Below, piece after piece: positions 6,801-27,308 of a stretch of 27,308 nt of DNA. The stretch covers positions 1 to 27,308 of IMG/VR virus record IMGVR_UViG_3300031578_009556. The stretch is one strand, 5' to 3'. The number at the start of each line of letters is the position of its first letter. Within the stretch, counting starts at the first letter, position 1. A program made the position numbers and the translations under genes. Source of the stretch: a virus. Lineage: Duplodnaviria > Caudoviricetes. The notes beneath the pieces were generated by a model that saw nothing but the letters and a program-made list of their open reading frames with translations, was not told the origin of the DNA and ran no database searches.

Positions 6801-7106
6801 ATGAGAGTATATAAAAACAAATACTACATTTTAAGGGAACATCCAGGTATCTCAGGTTTTCAGCAATGGGATAAATGGGAATACAGAGTAGCAACAGGTT
6901 GGAAAGCCACTCATTACAAATTAAGCATAGTGGAACAACTTCTCGCTAATGGCCGAGGCCAATTTCGATTAGAAAATGGGTACTTCCCGGAATATCAGCC
7001 AGTAGTGAAAGAGAAAGAAATATATGATTGGCTTGATAAAGAAAGATATGCAACGGCCTACATTTTGAATCCTGAAGTTTATGGTTTAAAAACAACAATC
7101 AAATGA
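6801..7106 (+). CDS. Hypothetical protein, paralog A of 9812-10141
   Basis: GGAGG RBS; 62/98 aa identical without gaps to the ORF at 9812. Confidence 0.9.
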   Translation: MRVYKNKYYILREHPGISGFQQWDKWEYRVATGWKATHYKLSIVEQLLANGRGQFRLENGYFPEYQPVVKEKEIYDWLDKERYATAYILNPEVYGLKTTIK

Positions 7107-9281: not shown

Positions 9282-9815
9282 ATGACCATGCATAATTACA
9301 CTGATTACCAGGCCATGATCTTGAAATTAGCCCACATCTGGACAAACAAAGGAAATGGAAGAATCGAATTTGAAGAATTGGTTGCAGAAGGGAATCTTGC
9401 CTTTTGTATTGCTGATCAAAAATTCAGACCGGACAACGGAAATCAATTCTCAACCTACCTTTACACTGTTGCCAGCAATGCCATGTGCGATCTTGCCATG
9501 GGCAACTGGCGCAAGATGCAATTTGAATCATCAACAGAAGAAATAGACGTTCTCACCCTTCCTGATTCACAGACCCCAGAGACACAAACACGACTCAAAC
9601 AGTGGACTGAGAGCCTGTCAAAAGAAAGCCAATTCCTGATCAAATTAGTATGGGAGACCCCCGGAGAGATAGTTCAATGGGCACAAGAGGAAACATATCA
9701 CCCCAGAAACACACAAGATCGATTAGCGCGTTACTTACGTGGCTTAAATTGGAAGTGGGCTGATATACAATTCTGCTTCCAAGAGATTAAGGAAGCATTG
9801 AAGGAGGGAATATGA
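9282..9815 (+). CDS. Sigma-factor-like protein (region 2 clear, divergent C-terminus)
   Basis: MILKLAH...IEFEELVAEGNLAFCIADQKFRPDNGNQFSTYLY matches sigma-70 region 2. Confidence 0.75.
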   Translation: MTMHNYTDYQAMILKLAHIWTNKGNGRIEFEELVAEGNLAFCIADQKFRPDNGNQFSTYLYTVASNAMCDLAMGNWRKMQFESSTEEIDVLTLPDSQTPETQTRLKQWTESLSKESQFLIKLVWETPGEIVQWAQEETYHPRNTQDRLARYLRGLNWKWADIQFCFQEIKEALKEGI

Positions 9816-10141
9816 GAATCTTTAAAAACAAATATTACATACTGCAAAGCATCCCTGGCATATCAGGTTTTCGACGTTGGAATGAAAGAGAATATCGTGT
9901 TTGCACTGGGCATAAAGCCCAATTACACAAACTACATATTGTAAAAGAATTCAGAGAAAATGGCAGGGGCAAATTTTTACTGGGGGATGGCCACTTACCA
10001 GAATATCAACCTCAAGCTAGAGAAAAAGAGATTATTCCTTGGCTTGATAAACAACGATATTCAACAGCGTTCATTCTAAACCCTGAAGTCTACGGCCTTC
10101 AAACAGTAATCGATAATAATCAAATAAAGGAGGGAATATAA
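9812..10141 (+). CDS. Hypothetical protein, paralog B of 6801-7106
   Basis: GGAGG RBS, ATGA overlap; 62/98 aa identical to paralog A. Confidence 0.9.
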   Translation: MRIFKNKYYILQSIPGISGFRRWNEREYRVCTGHKAQLHKLHIVKEFRENGRGKFLLGDGHLPEYQPQAREKEIIPWLDKQRYSTAFILNPEVYGLQTVIDNNQIKEGI

Positions 10142-20982: not shown

Positions 20983-22346
20983 TGGAAGATTATGATCGGT
21001 TTTTAGAGAGGAAATCTCAGCTCGGTTCCAATTTTGGATTTGATCCTATTTTTATGCCGGATTTTCTTTTTGATTTTCAAAGGAGCCTTGTTGATTGGTC
21101 AATTAGAAAAGGGAGGTCTGCTATCTTTGCTGATTGTGGAATGGGCAAAACACCAATGCAATTAGTCTGGGCAGAGAATATTGTAAGAAAAACTAACAAA
21201 AGAGTATTGATCGCAACTCCATTGGCAGTAGGCTGTCAAACAGTTCGAGAAGGGGAGAAGTTTGGAATTGAGGTAATAATGTCAAAAGATGGAACCCCGA
21301 AGGAGAAAATAACCGTCACAAATTATGAAAGGTTGCATTTATTTAACTCCTCTGATTATGAAGGGTTTGTATCTGACGAGTCTGGCATTCTTAAAAATTT
21401 TGATGGAGCACGTCGAAAAACAATTACAGAATTTGTAAAAAAAATGCCTTACCGTTTATTGTGCACTGCAACGGCGGCTCCTAATGATTACATCGAATTA
21501 GGGACCTCTTCAGAGTCCCTTGGAATAATGGGTTATATAGACATGCTTAACCGATTCTTTAAAAATGACAATAATACCTCAGCCCTAAATAGATTCCATG
21601 GACAAGCTAAACAATGGAGGTTTAAAAGGCACGCAGAACAACCGTTTTGGGAATGGGTTTGCTCATGGGCAAGGGCGATTAGAAAACCGTCAGATATGGG
21701 ATTTGAAGATGGAAAATTTATTTTGCCCCCCCTTATAGAAAAGGAAACCATCATTCATTGCTCAAGGCCCTTAAACGGGGGGTTGCTTGTTGAACCTGCA
21801 AAAACTTTGAAAGAGCAAAGACAAGAGAGAAGAATGACCCTTAGAGAAAGATGTGAAATGGCAGCTAGCAAAGTTGCTGATGACAAAATTGCAATTGTTT
21901 GGTGTCATCTAAATGACGAAGCAGATTTGCTCGAAAGAATTATACCTGAAGCAAAACAAGTAAGTGGACCGATGACAGACGACAGGAAAGAGGAAATTCT
22001 TGTTGAATTTTCCGATAGCAATTTGCGGGTTTTGATTACCAAGCCCCGCATAGGAGCCTTTGGATTGAATTGGCAACATTGTTCACACATGACTTTTTTC
22101 CCATCTCATTCATTTGAACAGTATTATCAAGGGACAAGAAGATGTTGGCGATTCGGTCAAAAAAAGCCCGTTACAGTTGATATTATAACAACAGAAGGAG
22201 AATTGAGAGTGTTAAAAAATCTTCAGAAGAAAGCAAAGGCCGCTGATAAAATGTTTTCTTCTCTCATCAAATATATGAACAACTCAGTTGAAATAAAAAA
22301 AGAAGAAGGCTACAACGAAAAAGAAAGGATTCCATTATGGATGTAA
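20982..22346 (+). CDS. SNF2-like SF2 helicase
   Basis: DCGMGKT, DESG, TAT, GLNWQ and QGTRRCWRFGQ motifs. Confidence 0.9.
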   Translation: MEDYDRFLERKSQLGSNFGFDPIFMPDFLFDFQRSLVDWSIRKGRSAIFADCGMGKTPMQLVWAENIVRKTNKRVLIATPLAVGCQTVREGEKFGIEVIMSKDGTPKEKITVTNYERLHLFNSSDYEGFVSDESGILKNFDGARRKTITEFVKKMPYRLLCTATAAPNDYIELGTSSESLGIMGYIDMLNRFFKNDNNTSALNRFHGQAKQWRFKRHAEQPFWEWVCSWARAIRKPSDMGFEDGKFILPPLIEKETIIHCSRPLNGGLLVEPAKTLKEQRQERRMTLRERCEMAASKVADDKIAIVWCHLNDEADLLERIIPEAKQVSGPMTDDRKEEILVEFSDSNLRVLITKPRIGAFGLNWQHCSHMTFFPSHSFEQYYQGTRRCWRFGQKKPVTVDIITTEGELRVLKNLQKKAKAADKMFSSLIKYMNNSVEIKKEEGYNEKERIPLWM

Positions 22347-23293
22347 TAAATCAAAAAATTGAAGACAAATATGCAATTTACCAAGGGGATTGTATTGATG
22401 TTATGAAACCCATTCCTGATGAGAGAATTCACCTTTCTGTATATTCTCCCCCGTTTGGAGGGTTATATCATTATTCATCTTCTGAACGAGATTTATCAAA
22501 CTGCAAAGATTATAAGCAGTTTTTTGAGCATTATGGGTATGTAGTTCAAGGGTTGTTCAGAATAACCTTGCCGGGGAGGATTACAGCGGTCCATTGTATG
22601 GATGTTCCGACTGGTAATAGCGGTAGAGATCATCTCACTGACTTCCCAGGGGATATAATTCGATTACATGAAAAAATCGGTTTTGAATATATCTCCCGCT
22701 ATTCAGTATGGAAAGAACCCCTTGGAGTTCGCAATCGTACAATGGCTAAAAACCTTGCCCATAAAACGATTGTTGAAGATTCTTCTTTATGTAGTGTCGC
22801 ATCGGCAGATTATCTTGTATGTTTTCGTAAAAAAGGAGAAAATAAAATTCCTATAGCCCATCCCCAGGGGTTGACAGAGTATGCAGGGGCAAGAAAGATT
22901 CCACCAGATCTATTGAAATATAAAAATTACAGAGGAAATCAAATTGAAAATCGTTATTCACATTGGATTTGGAGGCAATACGCTTCTGCCTTTTGGGATG
23001 ATGTTCGGATTAAAAACGTTCTACCTTTCAAAAGATCAAAAGACGAGAAGGATGAAAAACATATACACCCTTTACAACTCGATGTAATCGAACGATGCAT
23101 AATTCTTTGGAGCAATCCGGGGGAAACAGTTTTCACTCCATTTATGGGGGTCGGGTCAGAGGTCTATGGAGCAGTTGTCAATAATCGAAAAGGGATAGGG
23201 ATAGAATTGAAAACATCATATTATCGGCAAGCAGAAAAAAATCTTTTACGGGCTGTTGCTAATGTAGGTGAAATTAAGGGGTTTGGACTATAA
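22337..23293 (+). CDS. DNA methyltransferase, N4-C/N6-A family (beta class)
   Basis: GDC, YSPPF catalytic motif, HIHPLQ, PFMGVGS, GIELK. Confidence 0.9.
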   Translation: MDVINQKIEDKYAIYQGDCIDVMKPIPDERIHLSVYSPPFGGLYHYSSSERDLSNCKDYKQFFEHYGYVVQGLFRITLPGRITAVHCMDVPTGNSGRDHLTDFPGDIIRLHEKIGFEYISRYSVWKEPLGVRNRTMAKNLAHKTIVEDSSLCSVASADYLVCFRKKGENKIPIAHPQGLTEYAGARKIPPDLLKYKNYRGNQIENRYSHWIWRQYASAFWDDVRIKNVLPFKRSKDEKDEKHIHPLQLDVIERCIILWSNPGETVFTPFMGVGSEVYGAVVNNRKGIGIELKTSYYRQAEKNLLRAVANVGEIKGFGL

Positions 23294-23937
23294 TGTTAAC
23301 CCCATATTTTGAAACTAAATTAGGCAAGCTATATCACGGAGACTGCCTTGAGATAATGCCGCACCTTGATCCGGTGGACTTGGTGTTGACTGACCCGCCG
23401 TATGGAGTCGATAAAGCAGAATGGGACACCGGATATGTTTCGGTTGAACCGATGCTTATTCAAAAAGCCGCCGGGGTAATTATAAATTGTGGAGAACAAA
23501 ACATCGCTACCTGTGTCAATGCCCTTGGCGACAATTACAGGGGTCTTTTTTATGGATGGAACATGAACGGAATGACAAGGGGGCCGCTTGGATACATGAA
23601 CATAATCCTTGCTGTTTGCGGTGGAAAATTAAAGCGGGGCATGAATATTTGTAAGTTTACAATAAAAGACCTGACTCGCAAAAACCATCCGTCACCAAAA
23701 CCGATTGAATATTATCGTGAAGTTTTGTTTCGGTTTTCAGATGAAAATCAATCTATTCTTGACCCCTTCCTTGGCAGCGGTACGACCGCCGTAGCCTGCG
23801 AGTACCTTAACCGCCGATGGATAGGAATTGAAATTGAAGAAAAGTATTGTGAAATAGCAGCAAAAAGGATTGATGAAGTAAATTTCGGGTTGCAACAAGT
23901 ATCAGAAGGGAAGCCACCAGAAGGATTGATATATTAA
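23293..23937 (+). CDS. DNA methyltransferase, N6-adenine type (beta class)
   Basis: HGDCL, TDPPY, HPSPKP, DPFLGSGTT, GIEI. Confidence 0.93.
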   Translation: MLTPYFETKLGKLYHGDCLEIMPHLDPVDLVLTDPPYGVDKAEWDTGYVSVEPMLIQKAAGVIINCGEQNIATCVNALGDNYRGLFYGWNMNGMTRGPLGYMNIILAVCGGKLKRGMNICKFTIKDLTRKNHPSPKPIEYYREVLFRFSDENQSILDPFLGSGTTAVACEYLNRRWIGIEIEEKYCEIAAKRIDEVNFGLQQVSEGKPPEGLIY

Positions 23938-25624: not shown

Positions 25625-26161
25625 ATGAAAGCAAAAGACATTACCAAAAAATTATTTGCAGATGCCTGCGACGACCTGAATGCCGTCATGAAACTGGACC
25701 CTCCCATTCCAACCGATCCAGAGGCCAAGGAAGTGACCAAGGCCACATTGGAAGCTGACTTGAGAGAGGCAGCAGCAGAATTGCAGGTGGACGATGTTTT
25801 AAAGCCCAAGACGGTTGAAGTGCTGGAGACATTGGGGGTTGAGGTACCGAAGGCAGGGACAGTGGAAGCGGGAGAAGAAAAGAAGGAAGAGAGAAAGGAA
25901 GAGAAAGAGGAAAGTCCTCTGAAAAATCAATCTACCAAACAGCCCAAATTTACACGTATTCAGGCAGTTGGTCAAGCCTTCCTTGATGCCCCCAAAGATG
26001 GCATCAGTCGAGATAATCTGGTTACTGCGTCAGATAAGATTTATGCTGATAAAGGCGGCAAATCCAACTCCAAGGAAGCAAAGTGGTCAGTCAAGCTATT
26101 TTTGGATGTTCTCGGTTCAGTTTCCTTGATTAAGGAAGTTGAAGGAAAGTTCAGTTCATAA
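25625..26161 (+). CDS. Hypothetical protein (acidic N-domain, charged linker, small C-domain)
   Basis: AGGAG RBS; 178 aa. Confidence 0.85.
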   Translation: MKAKDITKKLFADACDDLNAVMKLDPPIPTDPEAKEVTKATLEADLREAAAELQVDDVLKPKTVEVLETLGVEVPKAGTVEAGEEKKEERKEEKEESPLKNQSTKQPKFTRIQAVGQAFLDAPKDGISRDNLVTASDKIYADKGGKSNSKEAKWSVKLFLDVLGSVSLIKEVEGKFSS

Positions 26162-26165
26162 GAAA

Positions 26166-26831
26166 ATGGGACACGGGCTAACAGTGCGAGGGGACAGAAA
26201 GGGAGAAAAGAAAAATTTCTCCCTTCTCCCCTTCTTTCCATATCTTGAGTCTAATCTTCCTGGTGAAATTTGGAAACCAATTTCCAGCTTCCAAGGATAT
26301 TCTGTTTCAAACAAGGGGAGAATTAAAGGCAAAAGTGGATTGTTGAAATGTCGAGCTAAGGATGGTTATTTCTATTTCAACTTGTATTCGAATAGCAAGG
26401 CAGTAACTAAACAAGTTCATAGAATTGTTGCTACAGAATTTCTTGGTGGGAAAAGAAATAGTTATAAATATGTTCCAAACCACAAGGATGGCAATGGGCT
26501 AAACAATGACGTTGAGAATTTAGAGTGGCTCACATACTCTGACAATACAAAACATGCTATTGAAATGGGATTGATAAAGTTTAAATCAGGCAAAGAGCAC
26601 CATGCATTTGGAAAACATCAATCTGAATCTTCCAAGCAGTTAAAAAGATTGGCGATGAGAGGAGAAAAAAATCATAGAAGCAAATTGAAAGAAAATGAAA
26701 TTTGGTTGATGAAGAAAATCCTACAAGCTAAATTGGCAAACCTCGCTTATGCTGTAATAAGCAAAATGTTCAACATTAGTAGAGGATATGTCAAAGATGT
26801 CAATACTGAGAAAACTTGGAGATGGGTATGA
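26166..26831 (+). CDS. NUMOD4-HNH homing endonuclease (start re-called at ATG 26166)
   Basis: EIWKPI...YSVSNKGRIK (NUMOD4); VHRIVA...NHKDGNGLNNDVENLEW...N (HNH); NUMOD3-like FGKHQSESSKQ segment. Confidence 0.92.
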   Translation: MGHGLTVRGDRKGEKKNFSLLPFFPYLESNLPGEIWKPISSFQGYSVSNKGRIKGKSGLLKCRAKDGYFYFNLYSNSKAVTKQVHRIVATEFLGGKRNSYKYVPNHKDGNGLNNDVENLEWLTYSDNTKHAIEMGLIKFKSGKEHHAFGKHQSESSKQLKRLAMRGEKNHRSKLKENEIWLMKKILQAKLANLAYAVISKMFNISRGYVKDVNTEKTWRWV

Positions 26832-27308
26832 GACACGGATTGTCCATTCGTGGTGATTCTTTATACTGTCCTCTCGCCTTATCATTAGATACATATTCAA
26901 ATTGTCTTTGCGATTGTTGGCATTGTTATTTGCGAAGACTAAACTATGTTTGGGGAGATGCTTTGAACCCGGTTAATCCAGAAGATCTAAAACGCAAATT
27001 GCAAAACGGCTTGAATAACCCAAAGCCAAAATCCAGTCTCGCATGGGCATTGAAAAGAAAAGTCACCATTCGATTTGGCAATAAATCAGACCCTTTTCAA
27101 CCTATTGAAGAAACATATAGATCTTCTGAAGCGGCATTGCGAGTGTTATCCGATTTAAAATGGTCCTACGTGCTCCAAACTAGAAATACACACATCCTCA
27201 TACAATACGAAGAGATCGTTGTAAACAACGTGGGAAATTTTGTTTTCCTGCCGATCATAAGCCCAGGGGCAGAGATGGATTGGGAAGTTTTAGAGAGGAA
27301 AAGGACTA
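26828..27308 (+). CDS. Radical SAM protein, spore-photoproduct-lyase-like, partial (runs off the right edge; not in track)
   Basis: ATGA overlap; MRHGLSIRGDSLYCPLALSLDTYSNCLCDCWHCY has CxxxCxxC; IRFGNKSDPFQPIE; open to the window end. Confidence 0.85.
   Translation, partial: MRHGLSIRGDSLYCPLALSLDTYSNCLCDCWHCYLRRLNYVWGDALNPVNPEDLKRKLQNGLNNPKPKSSLAWALKRKVTIRFGNKSDPFQPIEETYRSSEAALRVLSDLKWSYVLQTRNTHILIQYEEIVVNNVGNFVFLPIISPGAEMDWEVLERKRT

Follow-up and report, generated by a model that had tools for sequence, protein, structure and literature searches.

The window analysed here, a stretch of 27,308 nucleotides, is a fragment of the genome of an uncultured phage, and a 51-kb record of the same phage (L001) extends beyond it. 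Towards its end the gene order is DnaB-like helicase, a 178-aa gene, an HNH endonuclease gene, a radical SAM gene, a PLP enzyme gene and a second radical SAM gene, and the endonuclease gene opens with ten codons that closely resemble the first ten codons of the radical SAM gene behind it. The locus raises the question of how one gene came to carry the start of another, and which of the two starts is native. The three genes concerned are the following.

25625..26161, + strand: upstream gene, 178 aa (unnamed phage family), which usually precedes the radical SAM gene
26166..26831, + strand: NUMOD4-HNH endonuclease ORF, 221 aa, I-HmuI-like, frame intact (Pfam, PDB 1U3E)
26828..27308, + strand: radical SAM gene (the longer record gives 354 aa), first gene of a module with the PLP enzyme and the second radical SAM gene downstream

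The radical SAM label is based on a CxxxCxxC motif and a weak Pfam match (E 0.0027, below the cut-off). The gene family is widespread and unstudied in phages; no relatives were found in the cultured-phage collection, and four genome-bin contigs came from unrelated taxa, so no host is named from them. In 97 of 116 distinct loci, a member of the upstream-gene family lies at most 900 nt 5' of the radical SAM gene. The upstream gene itself has no Pfam or PHROG match, and its look-alikes in the Atlas are unnamed viral clusters.

The HNH ORF contains a NUMOD4 domain (aa 34-74) and an HNH_3 domain (aa 82-128), both above the Pfam cut-off, matches I-HmuI (PDB 1U3E) with an E-value of 6.5e-13 and terminates at the usual C-terminus of its family. 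Active-site residues are kept, N105, H106, N118 and N127 being invariant across 30 aligned homologs; the residue aligned to D74 of I-HmuI is N, as it is in all 30. By domains and active site the product is a predicted I-HmuI-like NUMOD4-HNH homing endonuclease, and its sequence points to an I-HmuI-type fold. Among near-identical contigs the HNH gene varies at four sites only (two silent and two missense), which are too few to judge selection.

A preliminary description of the window had proposed that the HNH ORF captured the start of the radical SAM gene, aligning the leader MGHGLTVRGD (26166-26195) with the radical SAM start MRHGLSIRGD (26828) at 7/10 amino acids and 19/30 nucleotides, and these positions and counts were reproduced. 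The HNH stop overlaps the radical SAM ATG at 26828 (ATGA). As had also been reported, there is no in-frame ATG, GTG or TTG between the leader and NUMOD4 (codons 11-33). An in-frame GTG at HNH codon 7 lies within the captured piece and is the start in three of five cluster members, and an in-frame TTG for the HNH ORF occurs at 26139, inside the upstream gene. The proposal required that the leader be foreign to HNH proteins and that radical SAM homologs conserve HGLxxRGD. None of 119 other HNH homologs carries the leader and a search with HNH residues 1-45 returned its own cluster only, by which the leader was ruled out as a native HNH feature; the radical SAM family keeps xGLxxRGD. Scored with a profile of 107 family N-termini, the two copies reached 30.2 and 28.2 bits, whereas among 36,258 nine-mers (six frames) none of the others exceeded 7.3 bits, so their likeness is not due to chance. 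Nor is the layout an assembly artefact, because it recurs with 0-1 differences in contigs from two runs outside the set flagged as possible sources (X4 contigs span the left and right junctions, X3 contigs the right junction).

If the nuclease gene had entered the 5' end of its host gene, the 25625 gene of an HNH-free relative should be followed at once by the radical SAM start. This predicted layout is present in two overlapping contigs that represent one allele (L095/L098; 84-86% protein identity), in which the upstream gene, two bases and the radical SAM gene follow one another. The first 30 bases of this empty allele agree with the displaced copy (from 26166) at 28/30 positions and with the working copy (from 26828) at only 19/30. 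Past the junction the next bins agree with the window at 27/30 and 28/30, and the remaining bins at 23-28/30 (840 nt compared). At the RGD-ending codons, the divergence of the working copy from the empty allele has a P of 0.006. Because the empty allele sides with the upstream copy while its adjoining codons match at 27-28/30, we take the upstream copy to be native and the working copy to be foreign. The best crossover register, by fit to the empty allele, falls after base 27-29. In addition, a short contig of a relative in run X7 (~87% identity, depth 2.3) omits exactly 662 nt (26197-26860), while HNH-bearing contigs at ~99% are also present in that run. The cassette is optional at a fixed site, being missing in one relative (the two overlapping contigs L095/L098) and in this one short X7 contig, which together make up the empty-allele evidence. 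Both of its junctions map to a single host position with no loss of host sequence. The claim that the insertion lies within the 5' end of the host gene was borne out, the cassette having entered near codon 10, and the radical SAM gene is left whole, as a chimera with its boundary at the insertion site. The locus can be divided as follows.

26166..26194 (may reach 26197), + strand: displaced native radical SAM start, codons 1-10, in frame with the HNH ORF (28/30 to L095/L098)
26195..26856 (about), + strand: inserted 662-nt cassette with hairpin leader, HNH body and replacement start (absent from L095/L098)
26828..26856, + strand: replacement radical SAM start, codons 1-10, likely foreign (19/30 to the empty allele; P 0.006)

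A displaced start might also be the real start of the enzyme, if the 662 nt were removed or skipped by a self-splicing intron or by ribosome bypass. The enzyme would then begin with the peptide MGHGLTVRGDSLY, in place of the MRHGLSIR of the two-start model. Joining at the matched registers does give an in-frame enzyme, and a hairpin stands at the 5' junction, as in bypassing of T4 gene 60 as far as the available text on that system describes it. Against this, no Rfam match attains the gathering score and the small-RNA matches are at chance level, no register has U...G or GUG...AY ends, there is no stop behind the putative take-off codon, and the interval codes almost throughout, with no space for a ribozyme core. 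Rfam, small-RNA and splice-end checks on the DNA found no group I or group II intron or intein flanking the HNH gene, whose ORF ends in a stop. Skipping is also unnecessary, since a complete second start exists, and we regard such removal as extremely improbable.

The boundary 5' of the radical SAM gene has been occupied more than once. A nuclease lies directly 5' of the gene in four clades (two HNH and two GIY-YIG), which are separate by the branching order of a FastTree tree; the profile search for HNH genes covered all 173 loci and the Pfam comparison 31 of 79 candidate upstream ORFs, so that the nuclease count is a lower bound. The second HNH (L025/L026) is 45% identical to that of the window, has the best E-value among 126 homologs, with its bit score tied with one other, and is the nearest to the window HNH by tree path, with weak support. 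Its ORF at L026:3556-4002 overlaps the stop of the upstream gene and has a UUCG-loop stem within its first codons. It begins MGR, as does the nearest radical SAM relative (P0061, 74%), a match of three residues that we note as a lead. A GIY-YIG/NUMOD3 gene (L154:280-969) begins exactly at the ATG that the radical SAM gene uses in the empty relative L048, and a frameshifted GIY-YIG/NUMOD3 gene (L138:2736-3011) stands at the same gene boundary. A DUF1643 gene (L147:2423-2974) occupies the first three host codons by comparison with L045, and the enzyme restarts downstream. This DUF1643 insert matched no nuclease family, and since it did likewise, start capture at the radical SAM gene needs no nuclease. 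Among 50 pairs at 70-97% DNA identity, which are not independent, the three most diverged RGD-ending 27-mers are all nuclease-versus-empty comparisons (P 0.002-0.006); the next most diverged pair has a P of 0.010, and the DUF1643 pair is not significant (P 0.12). Spacers of 280-360 nt precede the radical SAM gene in four other loci (L019:3688-3960, L020:3730-3960, L027:3660-3975 and L166:2715-2985), the first 60 bases being common to L019 and L020. ORFs from these spacers that were sent to Pfam gave no match, and the spacers are possibly non-coding RNAs.

What the hairpin at the left junction does is a further question. The 10-bp hairpin that had been pointed out there (26199-26208/26216-26225) is real, and the 27-kb window has just one other perfect hairpin of at least 10 bp with a loop of 3-10. 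A short stretch rich in T comes after it (26232-26237; 5 T in 9 nt), and a terminator scan lists it on the minus strand only, not on the plus strand. The 80 nt behind the upstream stop fold with a z of -3.2 in the window. In the empty allele a stem lies in radical SAM codons 7-17 (-16.2 kcal/mol, z -3.6), whereas the replacement start of the window has no such stem at the same codons (-4.0 kcal/mol, z +1.0). The insertion point is the end of the 5' arm of this coding hairpin, so that the locus now holds two elements:

26190..26231, + strand: junction hairpin, core 26199-26225, in which host GGGGA pairs with cassette TCCCC (-23.7 kcal/mol)
26868..26877, + strand: orphaned 3' arm of the host coding hairpin, whose 5' arm (26186-26194) is left in the displaced copy

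Among 99 nuclease-free representatives the codon bias fits the stem, with GGG in 52/95 versus 28%, CCY in 79/99 versus 54% and CTY in 62/99 versus 28%, while the TGT codon has no bias; compared with synonymous shuffles, 60 of the 99 have a fold stronger than z -1. The stem depends on the layout of the locus. When the loci are divided into those whose radical SAM gene abuts the upstream gene and those with a spacer between the two, leaving out the four nuclease loci and 17 representatives with no visible upstream gene, a coding stem of -10 kcal/mol or stronger is found in 47/58 abutting loci versus 7/24 spaced loci (Fisher P 2e-5), and 20 of the 24 spaced loci have an intergenic hairpin that passes the T-tail filter. 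On the tree, 17 changes between the two layouts are counted. Directly behind the upstream stop, 80 nt reach z below -2 in 58/86 loci, versus 3-13 of 83-86 in seven flanking windows. From the abutting/spaced split and these counts it follows that the sequence behind the upstream gene retains a hairpin, which lies either in the spacer or in the codons of the next gene. It is likely the terminator of the upstream gene or a stabilising stem at its 3' end; the T-tails in the family are modest (4.2 of 9 versus a background of 2.4) and partly forced by the codons. In loci L015-L185 a coding repeat (for example L022:4016-4051 and L018:4016-4051) forms up to 15 bp in two pairing registers and excludes, and is excluded by, the intergenic hairpin behind the upstream gene.

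The coding hairpin is absent from all four nuclease-adjacent alleles (z 0.1 to 1.0), and likewise from the empty relatives of L154. Behind the upstream gene, L026 has a hairpin with z -4.3 (inside HNH codons) and L154 one with z -1.8, and L138 has no significant one (z -0.2). In the window, the junction hairpin is likely a stand-in for the conserved host hairpin that the insertion broke, and this reading explains it better than a junction or splicing signal does. Two other roles for such hairpins were considered and rejected. By pairing with the start codon, the leader could dampen translation of the HNH gene, and the AUG is indeed paired, yet 145 of 300 shuffled tails do as well and 23 of 300 shuffled-tail folds leave the start codon as occluded. 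The L154 hairpin could hide the ribosome site of its nuclease, but it belongs to the upstream gene, because the empty relative L048 has it in common. A 7-pair stem at 26834-26852, inside the replacement start, is listed as terminator-like by the scan.

The preliminary description had called the replacement start a recoded N-terminus; that it is a replacement stands (19/30), but import from a relative fits better than recoding. Under local recoding, the first ten codons would have been duplicated and the working copy then changed in place to escape the nuclease, and the difference of 8/10 codons from the empty allele with conservative protein changes is what escape selection would give. The change stops abruptly at codon 9-10, though, the adjoining codons being 90% identical, the same peptide is found in the HNH-free lineage L102, and the replacement is without the coding hairpin, like the alleles of spaced lineages. 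Recoding in place is in our judgement very unlikely, and the replacement start looks to have been imported from a divergent relative. Its donor was not found, the closest DNA spellings agreeing at 21/27 (L102 and L099). Among 115 distinct 5' ends, 90 of them with at least 800 nt upstream, a displaced RGD copy occurs once, in the window itself, and 20-mer and degenerate scans of viral contigs matched this phage alone, with no second case of a displaced copy.

Import from a relative could also be an ordinary module swap at a recombination hot spot formed by the radical SAM start, in which the HNH gene was a passenger from a related phage that arrived with no cleavage. The DUF1643 gene of L147, which took the same position, and the 17 layout switches, mostly with no nuclease, speak for such a swap. 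But four of the five recognised inserts that take or abut the host start are nucleases, and they belong to two unrelated families; the two HNHs at the site are mutual nearest relatives, with weak support; and it is mostly the nuclease pairs that diverge in excess at the RGD codons, the DUF1643 pair remaining at P 0.12. A passive swap is on this evidence unlikely.

The observed layout, the empty allele, the sharp boundaries and the conservation of the hairpin point to an intron-free homing element, and we consider it likely that the 662-nt HNH cassette near codon 10, with the native start before it, a foreign start behind it and the hairpin rebuilt, is such an element. In the series of events that we infer, a donor phage of the spaced type would have carried the upstream gene, an intergenic hairpin, the HNH gene and the radical SAM gene in that order, and in a mixed infection its HNH would nick a recipient of the abutting type near the conserved RGD-SLYCP codons. 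Repair at the right end would use homology from about codon 10-11 onward, and at the left end a short match would join the GGGGA of the recipient to that arm of the donor hairpin which is rich in purines. Translation of the HNH would then begin at the old start of the recipient, 4 nt behind the upstream stop, and that of the enzyme at the imported start through ATGA coupling, for which splicing is not needed. The cassette leader would rebuild the hairpin where the host coding stem was split, and the displaced 29 nt may serve as left-hand homology in later rounds of homing, as in the WHO model discussed below.

A more far-reaching reading, which we put forward tentatively and hold to be rather doubtful, is that of a natural phage 'home-and-rescue' element that rescues two overlapping host functions, the enzyme start and a terminator or attenuator. 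The term is reportedly the name of an engineered drive. Here the HNH would target the hairpin-coding RGD-SLYCP allele and the foreign start would be resistant to cleavage, while the cassette would rebuild the terminator or attenuator encoded by host codons 7-17. Owing to the in-frame old start, ribosomes would traverse the new hairpin, and translation-coupled read-through into the HNH gene and the radical SAM module could be kept.

Related arrangements are described outside phages. According to the available part of one report (PMC7282813), WHO elements at the FBA1 gene of Torulaspora and Lachancea yeasts consist of an endonuclease gene with a divergent piece of the target, the old piece being left behind; the target gene stays whole with no splicing and the old end remains as a fragment, as in the window. 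WHO elements replace the 3' end and encode a LAGLIDADG protein with a zinc finger, whereas the window has a replaced 5' end and a NUMOD4-HNH protein. Allele-specific cleavage is demonstrated for WHO in the same available text and the fragment need not be translated, whereas the 29-nt fragment of the window, known from sequence, is in frame as the putative HNH start. The window element works like WHO and is not a member of the WHO family (HNH, 5' end, phage gene). Gene hybrids made by mobile ORFs in fungal mitochondria, namely atp6 of Allomyces macrogynus and atp6, atp9, cox2 and nad3 of Glomus, resemble the window, as far as the accessible portion of their description goes (PMC3630166), in that the displaced native end matches a close relative and the working end is foreign; they differ in that C-terminal pieces of 50-300 nt are involved, in organelles rather than at a 5' end in a phage. 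The window element is not a member of this family either, but is a 5' mirror of the WHO and hybrid layout. Excerpts of a fungal survey mention a free GIY gene duplicated together with the atp9 N-terminus (PMC7487136).

In phages, the available sections on T4 MobA (10.1101/2022.08.31.505936) describe an HNH cassette in the coding region of the topoisomerase large-subunit gene, with a divergent homologous replacement (HomR) of host codons and a new start for the part downstream, as in the window. There, by contrast, the protein ends up as two pieces, the host bases that were replaced are lost, and extensions and a bypass cassette are added, while in the window the enzyme remains a single chain with no deletion, and features of bypassing were not seen. 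According to the same sections, nicking was not blocked by the divergent replacement segment alone. As a precedent in phages T4 MobA is partial, and this nicking result is a caution for the idea that a replacement confers resistance. Free-standing seg and mob genes of T4 are, in the accessible part of PMC2988022, credited with 'intronless homing', in which an intron-free nuclease gene beside its presumed target has co-converted flanks and start/stop overlaps like those in the window; they lie between genes with start codons of their own, and the part consulted describes no displaced host start. No description of 5' start capture in phages was found in the literature searched, which lies mostly outside subscription journals and includes the available parts of PMC10448857, PMC12724721, PMC7344957 and PMC3296691. 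Replacement of a gene end is established for 3' ends in fungi and yeasts, and its 5' version in phages seems to be undescribed in that literature.

Besides introns and inteins, replacing the end that is broken off would be a third way for a selfish nuclease to sit inside a phage gene. Since the full sequence of both alleles is known here, the locus lends itself to a direct test. The conserved RNA hairpin in the first codons of the radical SAM gene constrains how inserts land there. For annotation, the N-termini assigned to such HNH ORFs are false, and the host gene has first codons that differ in history from the rest.

Several minor features were recorded around the locus. In the longer record the module (L001:4001-8394) comprises the radical SAM gene, the PLP enzyme gene, a small ORF, the second radical SAM gene and a 274-aa ORF. 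An in-frame insert with C...HN-C ends, presumably a mini-intein from its look, is present in the second radical SAM gene at L002:5838-7634. Within the window, an adjacent pair of N6/N4 DNA methyltransferase genes lies behind a helicase-like gene (22337-23937), and two alike ORFs of ~100 aa (6801-7106 and 9812-10141) appear by eye to be paralogs.
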